Source: Candidatus Poribacteria bacterium
GTDB taxonomy: Bacteria; Poribacteria; WGA-4E; PCPOR2b
Direction: 5' to 3'
Length of the DNA stretch: 64,000 nt
Assembly: GCA_965215015.1 (NCBI GenBank)
Contig: OZ244042.1
Coordinates: forward strand, 4,256,001 to 4,320,000
Shown: in pieces, positions 7,692-62,323 of the stretch
Layout: each line of letters begins with the position of its first letter
Position numbering within the stretch: position 1 is the stretch's first letter
Position numbers and translations under genes: made by a program
The notes under the pieces: model-generated
The model's database searches: none
What the model saw: only the letters and a program-made list of their open reading frames with translations
What the model was told of the DNA's origin: nothing

Positions 7692-8342
7692 CTATCTCCT
7701 CAACTCTTGGGCGGCATCAGTTTTAAGGACTTTATAGCTACATATCGAATCCCCGGTGGGCATGTGGCATTCTCGCTCAACCGGGACATCAAGTAGCCGC
7801 TGCAACAGTGATAATTCGAGCTGGCAAAGTTGAGGATACTTTTTTGCGATGGATTCAAGGGCACAGTTGTGTTCTTTGAGGATGTAGGCATTTGGTGTTT
7901 CCGCGATCTCGACCTGATAGCCTTCTTCATCCAAAAACGCAGCAAGTACTTTAATCTTTTCAGCTAAACTCTTACCTGCGATAGCGTTGAGACACATCGC
8001 GATCTTCGCTTCCATCTGATATTCAAGAAGCTGGTTGACCTTTTCTGCGCCATCAATCACCACCAAGGCATCCAAAGTACCCAGCGCAAACCGCGGGTAA
8101 TCATTTGGAAATAGACTCTCCTTTGCCTCCGAGGTAAGTTTATATATGTAGACAGGTCTACCTCTGCTAATTTTTTCGCGATAGTGTTGAATATAGCCTT
8201 CCCGTTCCAAGATAGACAGATGCTGACGCACTGTCATGGAATGGAGGTCTAATTCCTTGGCAATTTCACCGGCTGTCATACCGTTGTTTTTTTTCAAAAG
8301 TTCGACGATTGCGCCGCGTGTGTCTTTGGGTACTGATTTCAT
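7692..8342 (-). CDS. SufR-like HTH transcriptional regulator with Cys-containing C-terminal domain
   Basis: N-terminal wHTH (MTVRQHLSILE..GRPVYIY) and C-terminal HNC-x12-C-x2-E...C-x8-C, like SufR-family Fe-S sensors. Confidence 0.8.
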   Translation of the reverse strand: MKSVPKDTRGAIVELLKKNNGMTAGEIAKELDLHSMTVRQHLSILEREGYIQHYREKISRGRPVYIYKLTSEAKESLFPNDYPRFALGTLDALVVIDGAEKVNQLLEYQMEAKIAMCLNAIAGKSLAEKIKVLAAFLDEEGYQVEIAETPNAYILKEHNCALESIAKKYPQLCQLELSLLQRLLDVPVERECHMPTGDSICSYKVLKTDAAQELRR

Positions 8343-8479
8343 CGTTTCACCTTCCCCGTTTTGGTAGCGAACACGCCTTAACTCCCGCTCATTCCTATTT
8401 TCCCCAAGATTCCTTGATTAGACAAAGATTAGACAAAAATGTTAACTACTGAACCTTTTGCCGGTATAATGCTGCTGAA

Positions 8480-8566
8480 ATTATATCAGAAAAATAACAC
8501 ATTTACAAGTCAAAATATGTTTTTTAAGTTATTTACTTGACAAAACATAAAATATCGTGTTACTAT
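8480..8566. promoter_or_regulatory. Back-to-back sigma70 promoters with a central inverted repeat
   Basis: Minus strand: TTGTAA (8508-8503)-17-TATAAT (8485-8480). Plus strand: TTGACA (8537-8542)-18-TACTAT (8561-8566). Inverted repeat TATGTTTT...AAAACATA at 8516-8549. Confidence 0.65.
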
Positions 8567-8634
8567 TCCATCAATTCGATGCTAAACCTTGTTACAATAA
8601 GGTAGTTTAACAACTTTTTAGGAGAGCGAGGGAG

Positions 8635-9621
8635 ATGACAACAAGGGCAAATGAAACGGTCGGCGGAACGTTCAACCGAGACCTTGTTGAAGAGCCGATC
8701 AAAGGTACGGAGAGATATGAAGGCGACGCCGAGTGGGCAACACCGTCAGAGGAGGATGCGTCAATGCTGCATATTGATGCGTTAAGCACCTGGTTGCAGA
8801 CGGTTTCACAGCACGGGCTATTGTCTAGGGAGCAAGAGATAGAGCTTGCCAAGCGAATTGAACAGAATGATGAGAGTGCACGCGATGAGTTGGTCCAAGC
8901 GAATCTACGCTTAGTGGTTTCAGTCGCGATGAAGTATCAAGGGCATAATGTCCCCCTTGAAGATCTCATCCAAGAGGGAAATATTGGGTTGATGCGAGCA
9001 GCGAGTAAATTCGACTATCGGAAGGGATTTAAGTTTAGCACCTACGCCATTTGGTGGATTCGGCAGGCGATAATGAGGACGCTCGATAATTGTTCGCGCT
9101 CAATCCGGCTGCCCTCTTATGTCGTTGCGAAGGCGAGCAAATTTGATTCCGCTTATGCACACCTCAGTCAAGCCCTCCATCGTGAACCAACGATTGAGGA
9201 ACTATCGGAAGTGCTTGAGTTGACCGCTAAACAGATTGAAGATCTTTTGGTACTCAATTCCGGTACAGTATCGCTTGAGTTGCCGCTCAACGACGAAAAG
9301 AATGCAGCCACCTTGAGCGATCTGATCGAAGACCCCCAATCGAACCCAGAAGCCGGTCCGATTGCGGATTTGGTTAAAAGAGACTTAGTAGACACGCTCC
9401 TCAGTAAATTGAAAGCGAGAGAGCGGGAAGTGATTAAGATGCGCTATGGTCTTGAAGATGGTGAAGAAAAGACTTTGCGTGAAATTGGGGAGAAGATGGA
9501 GGTTACACGGGAACGGATTCGACAACTGGAGATTAAGGCACTAGCTCGTATAAAACGTCTGTACGACGAAGCGGGCGAACTTCAAATTCCGAAGGACGCG
9601 CCGAGCTGTCCGGCTGCGTAG
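8635..9621 (+). CDS. Alternative sigma-70 factor (RpoD-related, no region 1.1)
   Basis: ANLRLVVSVA, DLIQEGNIGLMRA, GFKFSTYAIWWIRQAI and VTRERIRQLE motifs; 328 aa. Confidence 0.93.
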   Translation: MTTRANETVGGTFNRDLVEEPIKGTERYEGDAEWATPSEEDASMLHIDALSTWLQTVSQHGLLSREQEIELAKRIEQNDESARDELVQANLRLVVSVAMKYQGHNVPLEDLIQEGNIGLMRAASKFDYRKGFKFSTYAIWWIRQAIMRTLDNCSRSIRLPSYVVAKASKFDSAYAHLSQALHREPTIEELSEVLELTAKQIEDLLVLNSGTVSLELPLNDEKNAATLSDLIEDPQSNPEAGPIADLVKRDLVDTLLSKLKAREREVIKMRYGLEDGEEKTLREIGEKMEVTRERIRQLEIKALARIKRLYDEAGELQIPKDAPSCPAA

Positions 9622-9646
9622 CATCCGCCAACACTAAGGAGACACA

Positions 9647-10279
9647 ATGAAGAATCTACTAAATAAATTAAAACCGAAACAACCCCAAACTGTAGAGGGT
9701 TCCGCACTGCTTACGGTTACTGAAGCCGCCAAGCAAAAGATTCAAGCGGTGATCGAAGACCAAGGGATGGAAGTTGAGGGGCTGCGCATCAGCATCAATG
9801 GACGCTCCGCATCAGCGTTTGAGTATGGGCTTGGGCTTGAAGTTGAACCTGCCCCCAATGATATCGTGGTTGACTGTGACGAATTTCAGGTTTTTATCAA
9901 TCCGGAAAGTGCTGAAAACCTAAAAGGGGCAACCGTCGATTACGTGGAAGACCTAAATTCGAGCGGTTTCAAGATTGATAACCCGAACGCACCGACATGG
10001 GATAATCCCAAAGCGCAAGCTATTCAACAGCTCATTGACGAGCGAATCAATCCTGCGGTCGCATCGCACGGTGGACACATCGATCTACTGGATGTTACAG
10101 ACGATTCCATCTACATCCACATGGGGGGCGGCTGCCAAGGGTGTGGCATGGCAAATGTCACCTTGAAGCACGGAATTGAGGGGATGATTCAAGAACATTT
10201 CCCCGAAATTAGGAATATTATTGATACCACCGACCACGCCGCCGGTGCAAACCCCTACTACCAACCGAGCAAGGGTTAA
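9647..10279 (+). CDS. nfuA: Fe-S cluster carrier NfuA (degenerate A-type domain plus Nfu domain)
   Basis: IscA-like N-domain lacking the conserved Cys (GATVDYVE..GFKIDNPN); INPAVASHGG and GGCQGC in the Nfu domain. Confidence 0.9.
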   Translation: MKNLLNKLKPKQPQTVEGSALLTVTEAAKQKIQAVIEDQGMEVEGLRISINGRSASAFEYGLGLEVEPAPNDIVVDCDEFQVFINPESAENLKGATVDYVEDLNSSGFKIDNPNAPTWDNPKAQAIQQLIDERINPAVASHGGHIDLLDVTDDSIYIHMGGGCQGCGMANVTLKHGIEGMIQEHFPEIRNIIDTTDHAAGANPYYQPSKG

Positions 10280-10287
10280 AAGCGAAA

Positions 10288-10378
10288 GGGGCATGTCAAA
10301 AGAAAGTGCTAAACGCTAGGAGTCCCCGAGTTTTTGCCAAAAACTCGGGGACTGTTGCACTATTTCTGAACATGAGCC
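10288..10378. mobile_element. MITE-like element, family 2 (ends GGCTCATGTCAAAAGAAAGTGC-like), with internal palindrome
   Basis: Imperfect terminal inverted repeats enclose the perfect hairpin AGTCCCCGAGTTTTT-GCC-AAAAACTCGGGGACT (10321-10353). Related copies lie at ~1093-1161, 32402-32578 and 33890-33964. Confidence 0.6.
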
Positions 10379-10397
10379 AATCGAAAAAGTAAAGTTG

Positions 10398-11906
10398 ATG
10401 ATGAAACATCCGGGAGCAATAGTACTCATTTCTTGTTACGAACTAGGGCATCAGCCGATCGGTCTTGCCTCCCCACTTGGGTTTCTTGAGCGCGCTGGAT
10501 ATGCGCCGAATGTGATGGACATTGCTGTTGAAACCCTAGATGTGGAAAAAGCTGCCCGTGCAGAGTTTGTTGGGATTTGCGTGCCGATGCACACCGCCCT
10601 CCGTCTAGGTGTCCATGTTGCAACCCGCCTCCGCAAAATTAACCCTACCTGCCATATCTGCTTCTACGGTCTCTATGCGTCACTGAACGCTGAATACCTG
10701 CTCAAACGTCACGCCGATTCAGTCATCGGGGGTGAATATGAGAAGCCATTGCTCGAATTGGTTGAGTCCTTTGCAAGTGGGAGTCGTATTGAGATACCAG
10801 GTGTCCTCCGAAGTGAGAGTGCCAAATTACTTCAGGATAACCCGCAATCCAGCCCCTTCCTGAGGCCTTCGCACTCTAGGGTAAGTGTGTATAAACCGCG
10901 CAGCAATCCGTCCAGCGAACCCCTCCCTGTACCGAGCCGGAAGCGGCTTCCGTTACTCGATAGATATGCACGCCTCGAACAAAATGGCGTAGCTCACCTG
11001 GCCGGTTATGTAGAGGCAAGCCGCGGATGCAAACACCTCTGTTTCCACTGCCCCATCCCTCCGGTGTATGAGGGCAACTTTTCCGTCGTGCCGCAAGAGG
11101 TTGTACTGGAGGATATTCGGGCTCAAGTTGATGCCGGTGCGGCTCACATCACATTCGGCGATCCTGATTTCCTTAACGGTCCCAAGCACGCGCTTAGGAT
11201 TGTTCAAGCCATGCACGAGGCGTTTCCGAACCTGACCTTTGACTGCACAACTAAAATTGAGCATCTCCTGAAGCACCGTTCTATCCTGCCTGAACTCCGC
11301 GACTGTGGCTGCATTTTTATTGTTTCCGCTGTTGAGTCGCTCAACGACACAGTACTTGAGAACCTCCAGAAAGGACATACACGCGCCGACGTTTTTGCTG
11401 TCATCGATCTTTTGAAAGAGGTTGGGATTGCGCTGCGCCCCTCGCTCGTTCCGTTCACGCCGTGGGAGACTCTCGATAGCTATCTGTATATCCTCAATTC
11501 CGTTGAAAGCAAAGAACTAATTGATTACATCGATCCCGTGCAGTACACGATTCGGTTGCTTATTCCGCCCGGTTCTTCCCTGCTACCCCAACTATCCATT
11601 CAACCCTACCTTGGAGCACTCAATCAGGAATCCTTCACCTACCGTTGGACACACCCCGATTCACGCATGGATGAACTCCACAAAGCAGTCAGTGTCACTG
11701 TAGAGAGCACATCACAGATTGGTGAGGATGCGTTTGTAACCTTTCATCGAGTGCGTAGCCTTGCGTATTCTGCAATCGGTAGAAAGGAATCTCCCATAGC
11801 GTTCCCACTAGATTTTGAATCTGACCGAAAACGACCGCCACGCCTGACTGAAGATTGGTTCTGCTGAGCGGAACCAACGCAGGGTCAGTTGGACTCGCTC
11901 AACTAA
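10398..11906 (+). CDS. B12-binding radical SAM selenoprotein (CUAEP-tail type); UGA 11865-11867 read as Sec
   Basis: CKHLCFHC cluster motif and an N-terminal cobalamin-binding-like domain. WFC-TGA-AEPTQGQLDSLN-TAA matches the CUAEP/CCAEP tail family, and a SECIS-like hairpin follows the UGA. Confidence 0.85.
11866..11900 (+). promoter_or_regulatory. Bacterial SECIS-like stem-loop
   Basis: GAGCG-gaa-CCAAC-gcagggtca-GTTGG-act-CGCTC at and immediately 3' of the in-frame UGA. Confidence 0.7.
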
Positions 11907-11912
11907 TGCGAT

Positions 11913-13202
11913 TTACACCATTAACTTCTCAATCTCATCAATTGTTTTCGGTACGGCCTCCGTTAGAACTTCGCAGCCGGACTCGGTGATTAGAATATTG
12001 TCCTCAATCCGTACTCCAATCCCCAGATACTCTGGTGGGACGTTTTCGCTGTCAGGAGCAATGTAGAGTCCCGGCTCGACAGTCATCACCATTCCCGGTT
12101 GGAAGGTTTTGTACTCCTCCCTTTCCCGTGTCTTCGCCACATCGTGAACCTCTACCCCTAGCATGTGCCCGACACTGTGCATGTAAAACCTTCGATGTTC
12201 CTGTTCCTCAATCAGCTCTTCCTTCTCTCCGACCAATAGCCCCAGTTTTAGCATCGCTTCAGTCAACATCTCCACTGCATTCTGAACGGGATCCCCAATC
12301 GAAACGCCGGGACCAATGCTTTCGATAATTTCACACTGGACATTGAGGACTGATTGGTAGACGGCACATTGCGCCTCCGTAAACTTCCCATTCGCAGGGA
12401 ATGTTCGGGTTATGTCACCACAATAGTATTGGTATTCACATCCCGCATCAATGAGTACCAAATCCCCATCTCCGATTTGGCAGTCGTTCGCCGTATAGTG
12501 CAGCGTCGTTGCATTTGCGCCCTTTGCTACAATCGTGAGGAATGCGGGACCTGTGCCGCCGTTTTTCCGATAAATTGAGTCTATTAGACTTTCCAATTCA
12601 TATTCGTACATGCCGGGGCGAACCGTCTGCATCGCTGCTGTATGTGCTTCAACACTGATGTCTACCGCTTTGCGAATCCGCCCGAGTTCCGTTTCATCTT
12701 TGAAGAGACGCATCTCGGCAAGGATGTGGGTGGGGTCAATTAAGACGGCCGGTCCCGTTCCTTCGCGCAAACGATGGCGTCTATATCCCTTGAGGAGTTC
12801 AATAATTTTTTGATTAAAGGCTTCGTCCGCGCCGAATCCGTAGTAGAGCCGCTCCGCTTTCCCAATATATTCAGAGATCTTTTCGTCAAACTCCTCAATG
12901 GGATAGGCTTCATCGGCACCGAAGCGTTCTTTTGCGCCCTCGACGCCGGCGCGCTTGCCTGTCCATACCTCCTGTTCAGGGGCGCGGGGACGCACGAATA
13001 AAACATACTGGTGCTCAGGGTGATCAGGGGCGATTACGCAAACCGACTCCGGCTCCTCGAAGCCGGTTAAATAGTAGAAATTAGCGTCCTGACGGTATCT
13101 ATATTCGGTCGAGTGTGTACGCATCGCCGGCAACGCGCTTGGAAAGATTGCAACACCTCCCACTATTTTTTCCATAAATGTTTTGCGTCTGTTTTCGTGC
13201 AT
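11913..13202 (-). CDS. pepP: Xaa-Pro aminopeptidase
   Basis: YRQDANFYYLTGF, DAGCE..GDITRTFP, HSVGHMLG, TVEPGLY and GVRIED motifs. Confidence 0.93.
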   Translation of the reverse strand: MHENRRKTFMEKIVGGVAIFPSALPAMRTHSTEYRYRQDANFYYLTGFEEPESVCVIAPDHPEHQYVLFVRPRAPEQEVWTGKRAGVEGAKERFGADEAYPIEEFDEKISEYIGKAERLYYGFGADEAFNQKIIELLKGYRRHRLREGTGPAVLIDPTHILAEMRLFKDETELGRIRKAVDISVEAHTAAMQTVRPGMYEYELESLIDSIYRKNGGTGPAFLTIVAKGANATTLHYTANDCQIGDGDLVLIDAGCEYQYYCGDITRTFPANGKFTEAQCAVYQSVLNVQCEIIESIGPGVSIGDPVQNAVEMLTEAMLKLGLLVGEKEELIEEQEHRRFYMHSVGHMLGVEVHDVAKTREREEYKTFQPGMVMTVEPGLYIAPDSENVPPEYLGIGVRIEDNILITESGCEVLTEAVPKTIDEIEKLMV

Positions 13203-37400: not shown

Positions 37401-37453
37401 ATGCGTGATACGTAATGCGTAAACGTTCAGGGATTCATTGGTTTATTAATTCT

Positions 37454-37616
37454 AGGATTTACGCAGTTGAATACTCGAAGCCTTGTAGTTCGGCGATGAA
37501 TCGCCGAACTACACAACTCCCGACGCCCGATGAATTGGGCAACGACAGTAAGAACTCCATTAAGGAGGCTCGTAGGGAACACCGATCGGTGCTCCCTACT
37601 GAAGTGCATAACTCTT
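37454..37616. mobile_element. MITE-like element, family 1, copy B
   Basis: Ends AGGATTTACGCA...TGCATAACTCTT; two GTAG...CTAC palindromes inside. Confidence 0.65.
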
Positions 37617-50032: not shown

Positions 50033-51157
50033 TTATTTCCCTTCTTGAGGTACTCCCCACGCTTCCCCAGAAAACGTTACGTTTGTAGCTACTGTGGAAG
50101 TTAGAATAAACGATTGACCCCCAGTAATTGGGTTGTCCCCATCATCACCTACTCTGCCGATTGTTTTGAACTGACCGTCATCCTCAACGATAATGGCAAC
50201 AATTATAGGCACGGCAAGCAATAAATTGCTTACTGAATATGAGGGAAAAAGAGGTTTTCGGGGGATGCCTATGAAACTCGTTCCACTATGTATATGGACT
50301 GAAGAATCAAGTGCCTCTCCCGTCAATCGTAGGGTCATCGCATTATTCATAAAAGCAATAACCCCTTCATAACTTCGCAAACTCCTGTCTGCAGTCCTAT
50401 CCCCGAAATAGTTCTCCCAGCTTTGGGTATCGTGATCGAAGGCCCTGAGATAGCTGACTTCTGTCAGCACATCGTACAAGTCCCCTAGGGTTTCAATGCT
50501 GATTGCTTGTCCGTCAACAGATTTGACCTTTAAGGGGATATGAATGAAATTCATGCCTTCATGGACAGTCAGGTCGAAATGAAACTGTAATGCGGTGGTC
50601 GTCCCGGCAAGGGCCCGGCTCCCTCCGAGACCATTGGTGACATCCCTAAGTTCGTCATGGTCCTCATCGTGGTAGTCATTGTGGTCATGGTCGTAGTCCT
50701 CATCATCCTCGTAGTCGTCGTTGTGGTCATGGTCGTGGTCCTCATCATCATCCTCGTAGTCGTCATTGTGGTCATGGTCGTAGTCCTCATCATCATCCTC
50801 GTAGTCGTCATCACGATCTTGTGCACTCTGGCTATACATGTTGTAATCCGGCTTTTGGGCTGTTGGGTAAATCACTACCCTGTTGCTAGAACCACTTAGA
50901 CTAGAGTTAATCGCTCCATCTTCACCGGAGTTGTGCTGCTCTAATGTATCCTTTTCAGGGGCTTTCGTGTTACCGGTTTTCTTTAGATGTTCATCGTCAA
51001 GAGTGTCCAAACCAACATCGTAGGTCAAGGGGTTATGGGGCTCACTTTCCTCATTTATATCTAGACGATCCGATCCTCGGTGTTTGATTGCACAACCTAT
51101 CACTATAAACAGCAGACATGTTGTAATACTTAGATATTTGTTTAATCTTGTAGACAC
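50033..51157 (-). CDS. Lipoprotein with His/Asp tandem repeats and C-terminal beta-rich domain
   Basis: Lipobox IVIGC; about 3.5 copies of DDYEDDDED(Y/H)DHDHN. Confidence 0.75.
   Translation of the reverse strand: MSTRLNKYLSITTCLLFIVIGCAIKHRGSDRLDINEESEPHNPLTYDVGLDTLDDEHLKKTGNTKAPEKDTLEQHNSGEDGAINSSLSGSSNRVVIYPTAQKPDYNMYSQSAQDRDDDYEDDDEDYDHDHNDDYEDDDEDHDHDHNDDYEDDEDYDHDHNDYHDEDHDELRDVTNGLGGSRALAGTTTALQFHFDLTVHEGMNFIHIPLKVKSVDGQAISIETLGDLYDVLTEVSYLRAFDHDTQSWENYFGDRTADRSLRSYEGVIAFMNNAMTLRLTGEALDSSVHIHSGTSFIGIPRKPLFPSYSVSNLLLAVPIIVAIIVEDDGQFKTIGRVGDDGDNPITGGQSFILTSTVATNVTFSGEAWGVPQEGK
50652..50811 (-). repeat. In-frame 42-45 bp tandem repeat encoding a D/H/E/Y-rich tract
   Basis: Direct repeats of the type tcattgtggtcatggtcgtagtcctcatcatcatcctcgtagtcg. 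Confidence 0.85.
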
Positions 51158-51231: not shown

Positions 51232-51735
51232 TCAGTTGTTTTTAGCACCTTCATTGATCCAATCAATGATAAGTTGCATCTGGGCTTCCTCCAAAGGAGG
51301 CCCATTAGGGGGCATCTTGCCTTCAACAATCTGTTCCACCAACTCGCTCTCTTTTGCATCGCCTACAATAATGACCGCGCCATCTTCTCCACCCACTTTG
51401 AGGGTTTTATAGGTACGGAGATCTATACCGTCTGGTCCCCCAGCGACATGGCAGCCTACAAAGGCACATCGGTTCGTAAGGATAGGCAAGATATCTGCGT
51501 TAAAAGAGGGACTCGGTCTGCCGGCATCCGCGGGGTTGTCAAATATAACACCGAGACCATTGGCGACAGCCCTAAGTTCGTCATGGTCCTCATCGTGGTC
51601 GTCATGATCGTGGTCATCATCGTGATAGTCATCATCGTAGCCATGGTCGTCATACTCGTCACCACAACCGATCAACCCAACCGAAATCAGTAATGTAATT
51701 AAAAATAAAATTTTAGCAATATGTAATAGTTTCAA
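51232..51735 (-). CDS. His/Asp-rich lipoprotein with Planctomycete-type cytochrome c domain
   Basis: Lipobox LIGC; FNADILPIL..RCAFVGCH (CX4CH), MPP distal Met and WINEGA motifs. Confidence 0.8.
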   Translation of the reverse strand: MKLLHIAKILFLITLLISVGLIGCGDEYDDHGYDDDYHDDDHDHDDHDEDHDELRAVANGLGVIFDNPADAGRPSPSFNADILPILTNRCAFVGCHVAGGPDGIDLRTYKTLKVGGEDGAVIIVGDAKESELVEQIVEGKMPPNGPPLEEAQMQLIIDWINEGAKNN

Positions 51736-62038: not shown

Positions 62039-62080
62039 ATGGAGATCTTGCAGAGCTAGGAATTATTTTTTTTATGGCTT

Positions 62081-62323
62081 AGGACTTACGCAGTTGAAGG
62101 TTCAAACCCTCGTAGTTCAGTGATGAATCACCGGACCATACGACTCACGACGTCCGATAAATCGGGCAACTACGATTCAGCCGACAGTCGTAGGTACGCT
62201 CCGCGTGCTGTCCCCCTCGAATCCCCCGCAAGCAGGGGGAAGGGGGGCAGCATACGGCGTATGCCTACTCCCTTAAAGGGGCGGATTGAATTGCGTTATT
62301 ACAAACTCAAGTGCGTAACCCCT
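62081..62323. mobile_element. MITE-like element, family 1, copy D
   Basis: Ends AGGACTTACGCA...TGCGTAACCCCT; flanks TATGGCTT/AACGGCTA (5/8 match). Confidence 0.8.

Follow-up and report, generated by a model that had tools for sequence, protein, structure and literature searches.

Gene content of the locus

The window (the whole stretch of Candidatus Poribacteria DNA analysed, 64 kb long) carries on its forward strand a radical SAM gene which, when the UGA codon near its end is read as selenocysteine (Sec), continues into a CUAEP tail and approaches a convergent pepP gene. The features of this locus are summarized in Table 1. The order of sigma factor and nfuA genes upstream of the radical SAM gene is also found in a Latescibacterota locus (L001). 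As the SufR-like gene is divergent from the sigma-70 and nfuA genes (7692-10279), its product could place the locus under the control of Fe-S status. Transcription of nfuA and of the radical SAM gene may be uncoupled by the palindrome that separates them; its 11-nt core CCCGAGTTTTT also occurs at the intergenic positions 1095-1123, and the palindrome with this core may be a terminator acting in both directions or one copy of a dispersed repeat. A promoter and terminator scan of the window gave hits at chance level only, and Rfam and ARAGORN searches of the 64 kb gave no match and no tRNA, respectively.

Table 1. Positions of the features at the radical SAM locus in the window (SECIS numbering counts the U of the UGA as +1)
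Feature	Position	Strand	Remarks
SufR-like HTH regulator, divergent	7692..8342	-	TIGR02702 113 bits (cut-off 178.8); in 1/79 other loci
Sigma-70 family factor	8635..9621	+	also in 2/79 other loci
NfuA-type Fe-S carrier (A-type + NifU domains)	9647..10279	+	directly upstream; recurring partner class
Perfect 15-bp palindromic hairpin	10321..10353	.	between nfuA and the radical SAM gene
Predicted CUAEP-tail radical SAM selenoprotein ORF	10395..11906	+	503 aa from TTG 10395; NF040546 685.3 bits
His66 of the PMHTA motif, N-terminal B12-binding-like domain	10590..10592	+	conserved in the CUAEP family; Phe in ArsL
Radical SAM CX3CX2C motif, C212-K-H-L-C216-F-H-C219	11028..11051	+	invariant in alignment A1
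Predicted Cys490-Sec491 dipeptide (TGC TGA)	11862..11867	+	UGA opposite Cys codons in 49/119 family loci
Read-through tail AEPTQGQLDSLN and true TAA stop	11868..11906	+	reading TGA as Sec
Putative SECIS minihelix (+15..+34)	11879..11898	+	core pairs +18..+22/+28..+32 (about 11882-11896); covariation
Convergent Xaa-Pro aminopeptidase (pepP)	11913..13202	-	stop 6 bp from TAA; in 0/79 other loci

Farther away in the window, short dispersed intergenic repeats of families D5 (37453-37546 and 62080-62173), D6 (36467, 37401, 42282 and 55367) and D8 (47444 and 51898) were observed. His/Asp-rich repeats at 50625-50811 and 51551-51650 lie in two adjacent predicted lipoproteins next to a gene labelled by inspection as TonB-receptor-like, and possibly serve in metal capture.

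Reading frame and family assignment

With the TGA at 11865-11867 read as Sec, positions 11850-11906 (codons GAA GAT TGG TTC TGC TGA GCG GAA CCA ... AAC TAA) are translated into EDWFC-U-AEPTQGQLDSLN-stop, the stop being the TAA at 11904-11906; under translation table 11 the plus-strand ORF ends at the TGA. The database version of the protein (P0002) has 488 aa, as expected if translation began at ATG 10401 and stopped at the UGA. Against NF040546, the NCBIfam family of radical SAM proteins with the CUAEP/CCAEP tail, the read-through protein scored 685.3 bits (cut-off 500) and is thus a member; the next family was ArsL (NF040542; 313.7 bits, cut-off 450), and all others reached at most 44 bits. 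The shortened protein scored 664.6 bits on the same family HMM, and because read-through brings 20.7 extra bits, the homology past the UGA is beyond chance. The first-pass annotation had proposed that the ORF reads through into a C-U-A-E-P tail, that it belongs to a family named for this tail and that its extended end lies 6 bp from the convergent pepP stop. The codons, the HMM gain and the homologs with a Cys codon (see below) uphold the read-through, the NF040546 match over the cut-off agrees with the family name, and the TAA at 11904-11906 and the ORF end at 11913 give the distance. Judging from these comparisons of sequences, we regard the recoding of this UGA as Sec as nearly certain.

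The named homologs nearest to the protein are from Candidatus Poribacteria (82%, 72% and 70% identity), and the family as a whole ranges over at least 11 phyla, clustering by phylum on the tree. Among the best 120 homologs, 97 (one of them the protein of the window itself) end exactly at W[FY]C, 21 have WFCC-AEP and two are otherwise; among the closest 85, the end is WFC in 83 and CC occurs in none. When 150 representatives from clustering at 50% were considered, 47 had CC, 38 ended at the Cys and 65 (fragments or ArsL-type proteins) had neither. The radical SAM domain PF04055 was detected with 51.7 bits, and the cysteine motif follows the family pattern CxHxCxHC, of which the His/His form is found in 239 of 270 homologs. 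The AlphaFold model (pLDDT 93.1) has an ordered tail (91 for residues 481-490 and 88 for residues 491-500). The matches in the ESM Atlas were only the CUAEP family itself and unnamed ATP-grasp clusters, and searches of the PDB by sequence and by fold found no ArsL or CUAEP structure.

No established reaction for the family was found in the literature, in agreement with the first-pass annotation, which knew of none. The sole relevant paper found for CUAEP, CCAEP or NF040546 (bioRxiv 2022.07.06.499078) describes the family, in its available text, as uncharacterised CU-motif selenoproteins and ties CU motifs to heavy metals. Selenocysteine is thus already known at the family level, and its recoding here is ordinary rather than new biology.

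Sec/Cys interchange and the SECIS element

We scanned the DNA of GTDB genomes for E-x-W-[FY]-C-[Cys or UGA]-A-E-P and obtained at least 120 loci, from which one chance match (L030) was dropped; among the matches listed, the 119 family loci have TGA in 70 and a Cys codon (TGY) in 49. The post-UGA tails of the 70 UGA loci are 10-25 residues long, most commonly 11. Because the pattern demanded AEP, the scan is circular for these three residues; it fixes nothing beyond +11 (the U of the UGA being +1), so that the bases past +11 are unselected. The first-pass annotation had suggested looking for Cys at the UGA position and counted on a conserved AEP after it, and both were found: Cys codons in the 49 loci, and CC followed by AEP in the 21 proteins among the best 120 homologs. 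In addition, tblastn independently retrieved the cultured strain Thermomicrobium roseum DSM 5159, whose gene has UGA-AEP together with the same stem and whose annotated end is the UGA.

A tree of 68 family proteins (the window and those 67 flanked loci, out of 79, whose frame stays open for 420 codons or more) and five ArsL rows required 15 switches between Sec and Cys, of which 13 were forced by supported branches. On this finished tree the SECIS element tracks the codon (13 independent pairs, 8.8 agreeing versus 0.5 opposite, median p = 0.012); the same test on a quick tree was non-significant (8 pairs, median p = 0.0625). In the Cys-codon loci L043, L077 and L078 most of the SECIS stem is kept, which fits a recent loss of Sec.

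A SECIS-like hairpin directly after the UGA had also been reported in the first-pass annotation. A stable hairpin is indeed present: the 42 nt from the UGA fold with -16.2 kcal/mol (z = -3.0; 2 of 200 shuffles equally good), and it is the most stable 45-nt fold behind any TGA-ended ORF of at least 150 aa in the window. Its lowest-energy two-stem fold, however, showed no covariation among the 71 UGA genes (0.108 versus 0.106 in shuffled alignments, 163 of 500 as high) and was rejected as the SECIS element; since the annotation gave no base pairing, which fold it meant cannot be told. The stem +17..+22/+28..+33, on the other hand, covaries in the same 71 genes (0.565 versus 0.252 shuffled, 0 of 500 as high), with 95 double-sided changes as against 39.7 after shuffling (none of 500 shuffles reached this number), and it surpasses all slid registers. 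RNAalifold recovered the same +17..+33 helix unaided, with a consensus of -8.62 kcal/mol for the alignment. The pairs 22-28, 21-29, 20-30, 19-31, 18-32 and 17-33 are formed in 70, 54, 61, 68, 67 and 55 of the 70 UGA loci and in 29, 15, 15, 21, 22 and 18 of the 49 Cys loci, respectively. The conserved stem is mostly gone from the Cys-codon relatives: G+24 is present in 70/70 versus 34/49 loci, the five core pairs together with G+24 in 50/70 versus 2/49, and folding after the codon is stronger in the UGA genes (median -13.7 versus -9.6 kcal/mol at similar GC).

In the window the minihelix has all five core pairs and a loop AGUUG at 11887-11891 (family loop AGUUN) with the invariant G+24 at 11888, and its loop, stem and distance agree with the consensus bacterial SECIS model, as given in the available text of PMC13188914 (a loop of 3-9 nt with G in position 1 or 2, a stem of 4-16 bp, and the loop 16-37 nt past the UGA). 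It resembles this consensus in its apical loop of 5 nt, whose positions 2 and 3 are G and U, in its upper stem of 5-7 bp and in the position of the loop 19 nt after the UGA, and differs in lacking a conserved lower stem (the pairs past +17/+33 show no enrichment) and in its marginal energy (-7.3 kcal/mol in context and -5.9 alone, against a model threshold of -7.5). The five-pair test was passed by 8 of the 2337 TGAs in the window and was rejected as a proof by itself; the SECIS pattern hence has weight only when joined to the family comparison. With the first 12-14 nt constrained to be single-stranded, as by a ribosome, the sequence of the window folded into the conserved stem. The functional SECIS element is thus probably the small apical stem and not the long hairpin: the ribosome would cover the first 12-14 nt, the small stem with G+24 in its loop would form, and SelB would be recruited, giving the C-terminus a Cys-Sec pair in place of the Cys-Cys of relatives.

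That the UGA is a true stop, or that Sec decoding has been lost, with WFC as the end of the protein and the tail as a relic, would agree with the 83 of 85 closest database homologs ending there and with the weakness of the isolated minihelix, which competes with a more stable fold. We consider this very improbable, as the window retains AEPTxGQ together with the five core SECIS pairs and the element decays in the Cys relatives. Moreover, Sec-containing hydrogenases are reported from Poribacteria in the accessible part of PMC13582414, and selA and selB are described as common in sponge-symbiont bins in that of PMC5649159.

Conserved neighbouring genes

The flanks of 79 family loci (of at least 120 scanned), 48 of them wide on both sides, were analysed by Pfam searches of the 251 nearest codon-scored ORFs and by tblastn. 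A single family of ATP-grasp L-amino-acid ligases adjoins the radical SAM gene in 51 of the 79 loci (36 of the 48 wide ones) from at least seven phyla, on the same strand in 47 loci and within 800 nt in 48. The ligases have the domains ATP-grasp_4, LAL_C2 and ATPgrasp_N, are 43-56% identical to one another and share motifs of their own, DKPDPLxGPxFEE and R-x-I-G-G-L-C, the latter with a Cys that is invariant in 213 of 213 sequences; no NCBIfam family reached its cut-off on the ligases of the CUAEP loci. The closest solved relative is BL00235 (PDB 3VOT; E = 2e-37), followed by BacD (E = 1e-16), both with the common domains; according to the available text of PMC6920838, BL00235 makes Met-Gly and Met-Met. 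No ligase gene was found in the 64-kb window by tblastn. Poribacteria do carry the ligase family (P0374 and P0428), and the putative ligase of the genome of the window (P0472) probably lies elsewhere on the same contig as the radical SAM gene. Six further pairs of enzyme and ligase, apparently from shared genomes, suggest co-occurrence without adjacency.

YggX, a presumed Fe-S helper in cluster upkeep, is encoded in 28 of the 79 loci, and an Nfu, NfuA or A-type carrier in 20 (one partial, at a contig edge); YggX and a carrier of the latter kind occur together in none. In Dictyobacter arantiisoli (L014), which has a natural Cys-Cys version of the enzyme, yggX immediately precedes the radical SAM gene. 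All 48 of these neighbours are within 3.8 kb of the radical SAM gene, and the outer flanks have none. Because only 2-3 of the 5-6 exchanges between YggX and Nfu on the tree are forced, this exclusivity is partly taxonomic. The genes for pepP, PduO, the sigma-70 factor and the SufR-like regulator, present in 0, 0, 2 and 1 of the 79 loci, were rejected as conserved partners.

Two less frequent neighbours were also observed. DUF169 (COG2043) is encoded in eight of the 79 loci (L002, L012, L017, L020, L022, L025, L052 and L055), seven of which have the Cys version, and in some loci it lies between the enzyme and ligase genes. An ArsC-like selenoprotein gene (NF041106-like, HRxG-U-xTC) runs convergently towards the radical SAM gene at L009:202-~560 and L075:~9620-9956; it is a second UGA gene there, and it ends at the SECIS element of the radical SAM gene.

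From this observed association of genes we infer that the radical SAM enzyme and a dedicated ligase likely act in one pathway, in which an Fe-S helper would keep the cluster loaded. The cassette of ligase and YggX or Nfu, the register of the SECIS element and the 15 Sec/Cys switches are additions here to what was known of the family. No prior notice of such a ligase/Fe-S cassette at CUAEP loci was found in a search of preprint main texts and of papers outside most subscription journals.

Comparison with ArsL

The first-pass annotation had compared the tail with the Cys-rich tail of ArsL, a comparison that our results support: no characterised family is nearer than ArsL (313.7 bits versus 44 for the next), and its tail Cys residues bind arsenic. 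The further suggestion that the Cys-Sec tail could bind a metalloid or metal is less well supported, the tail lacking the third Cys of ArsL and ars genes not recurring at the CUAEP loci. The closeness to ArsL is one of scores, ArsL being the only outgroup in the tree. The two enzymes are 32-37% identical over about 430 residues, with the same two-domain layout and with 62 of 90 highly conserved columns in common, and the CC of the ArsL tail aligns with the C-U of CUAEP across a gap of about 45 residues. They are set apart by these extra residues before the tail, by the third Cys of the ArsL tail RCCLKC (CCxxC), where the CUAEP tail has Pro, and by His66, His218 and His328, which are specific to the CUAEP family and different in ArsL. 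The CUAEP protein also remains below the ArsL cut-off (NF040542, 313.7 versus 450 bits), and a 100/100 branch splits ArsL from the CUAEP family.

ArsL cleaves SAM to methylthioadenosine (MTA) and a 3-amino-3-carboxypropyl (ACP) radical, its tail being needed for the product and not for cleavage (bioRxiv 2024.02.01.577332). The available text of a later study describes As bound via all three tail Cys residues, an Fe-ACP species and an in vitro turnover below 1 (bioRxiv 2026.04.29.721666). ACP cleavage is rare, and in the literature consulted ArsL is the only CX3CX2C enzyme for which it is reported.

In the ArsL plasmid loci examined (L122, L123, L125 and L126, four of 43 matching records), an ATP-grasp gene and ars genes were present in 4/4. 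The CUAEP loci, unlike this ars operon context, have no recurring ars genes. Ten ArsL-cluster genes used as queries against the 79 CUAEP loci and the window gave one weak methyltransferase match (E = 4e-5), although these Bacillota queries may miss distant forms. Among the 251 adjacent ORFs, Pfam detected no ArsR, Acr3 or ArsB, and only ArsC (PF03960), weakly, in two small selenoproteins.

Orthology between the ligases of ArsL clusters and those of CUAEP loci was rejected in view of their identity of 20-30%, and an unrelated Pantoea ligase is nearer to the CUAEP ligases than the ArsL-cluster ligases are; the pairing of radical SAM enzyme and ligase is therefore a parallel. The ArsL-cluster ligases of the four loci are one family (31-54% identical), each preceded by a small protein, which is CMD-annotated in two loci and ends with CCK or CCS in the two that were translated. 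The ligases beside ArsL suggest aminoacylated products of the arsinothricin type. Neither aminoacylated arsinothricins nor a pairing of ArsL with ATP-grasp enzymes was found in the literature among the matches listed; the available text of PMC8552651 contains neither "grasp" nor "ligase", and that of PMC13149037 has nothing on ArsL-ligase pairing.

Proposed pathway and its alternatives

The reading that we put first joins the recoding and the shared ligase pathway with an ArsL-like transfer of ACP to a trivalent arsenical, and to all these layers jointly we give a probability of roughly 35%, the chemistry being argued by homology. The Fe-S helper, which is NfuA at this locus and YggX in different lineages, would keep the oxygen-labile [4Fe-4S] cluster loaded; such upkeep by NfuA would accord with its roles in Fe-S maintenance, as presented in the consulted part of PMC8593673. 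The radical SAM enzyme would cleave SAM to methylthioadenosine and an ACP unit, as in ArsL, and the Cys-Sec tail would hold the soft atom that accepts ACP, most likely that of a trivalent arsenical. On chemical grounds, with two tail ligands against the three of ArsL, methylarsenite would fit and ArsM would be dispensable. The ATP-grasp ligase would then link the methionine-shaped product to another amino acid, and the tethered atom could pass to the invariant Cys in the active loop of the ligase. We rank the arsenical highest since the closest characterised enzyme, the tail and the ligase occurring in parallel each argue for it. Homology to ArsL is no proof of ACP chemistry over 5'-deoxyadenosyl (5'-dA) cleavage, and literature searches for YggX with arsenic gave nothing relevant among the matches listed.

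The neighbourhood, with no recurring ars genes and with YggX or an Nfu/A-type carrier in 48 of the 79 loci, fits better with an acceptor other than an arsenical, namely sulfur or selenium on the Cys-Sec tail (a persulfide or selenylsulfide, possibly from Nfu-type clusters), with the same ACP transfer and ligation. The product would then be a dipeptide thiol of the homocysteine type that protects or repairs Fe-S proteins, a job shared by YggX, Nfu and aconitase. Aconitase is indeed encoded in 12 of the 79 loci, but nine of these belong to one Acidobacteriota clade, so that this linkage is mostly that of the clade. The spread over at least 11 phyla and the clustering by phylum look like housekeeping, and the available text of PMC8593673 states that Fe-S maintenance involves a genetic overlap between Nfu and low-molecular-weight thiols, and that the sacrificial cluster of lipoyl synthase is restored by NfuA. 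Nevertheless, simple maturation accounts for Fe-S carriers encoded next to a radical SAM gene, a radical route from SAM to homocysteine would presumably be costly, and the literature searched yielded neither such a reaction nor such a thiol. We regard a sulfur or selenium acceptor as less likely than an arsenical, though as a close rival to it.

Also to be weighed is a cobalamin-dependent or canonical 5'-dA enzyme (a methylase or a rearrangement, acting on an amino acid or on the dipeptide of the ligase), in which Cys-Sec would be a redox relay or would bind a metal, with His66 possibly turned towards the corrin. Over the whole length, the fold corresponds to that of AprD4, OxsB, MgmA, TsrM and CysS (VIA Z 26.4, 24.1, 24.0, 23.9 and 23.3; rmsd 3.5-4.2 A over 364-433 aligned residues), and like the CUAEP enzyme AprD4, OxsB, MgmA, TsrM, TokK and CysS have a Rossmann-like N-terminal domain and a radical SAM barrel. 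In addition, PF02310 (B12-binding) is just under its cut-off in the protein of the window (31.8 versus 32.1 bits), the PMHTA His66 is conserved here and not in ArsL, and in the window the radical SAM gene has a PduO-type gene at a distance of two genes. These structural relatives are, however, only 13-18% identical (AprD4, OxsB, MgmA and TsrM 16-17%), compared with 32-37% for ArsL; they have no Cys-Sec tail in the aligned stretches, and their substrates are apparently unrelated. ArsL itself has the same N-terminal domain, and its assays, as far as described in the available texts of bioRxiv 2024.02.01.577332 and bioRxiv 2026.04.29.721666, list no cobalamin. PduO, moreover, is beside none of the 79 other loci. 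Such an enzyme seems unlikely to us.

Implications for the family

The recoding amounts to a correction of annotation, as the tail is missing from the 85 closest database proteins. The value of the finding is rather a clue to a pathway: a partner enzyme, a candidate chemistry and cultured hosts for an uncharacterised family. We tentatively propose, while doubting it more than we credit it, that NF040546 and the ligase form a widespread and unrecognised two-enzyme pathway, mostly of uncultured bacteria, in which a carbon-metalloid or carbon-chalcogen bond would be made on ACP and the product handed over to the ligase Cys, giving an unknown dipeptide, with YggX and NfuA as interchangeable keepers of the cluster. 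If this is true, YggX would gain a defined client and with it a testable role, and the family would represent a selenoenzyme for carbon-metalloid bonds and the source of an unknown dipeptide across at least 11 phyla.
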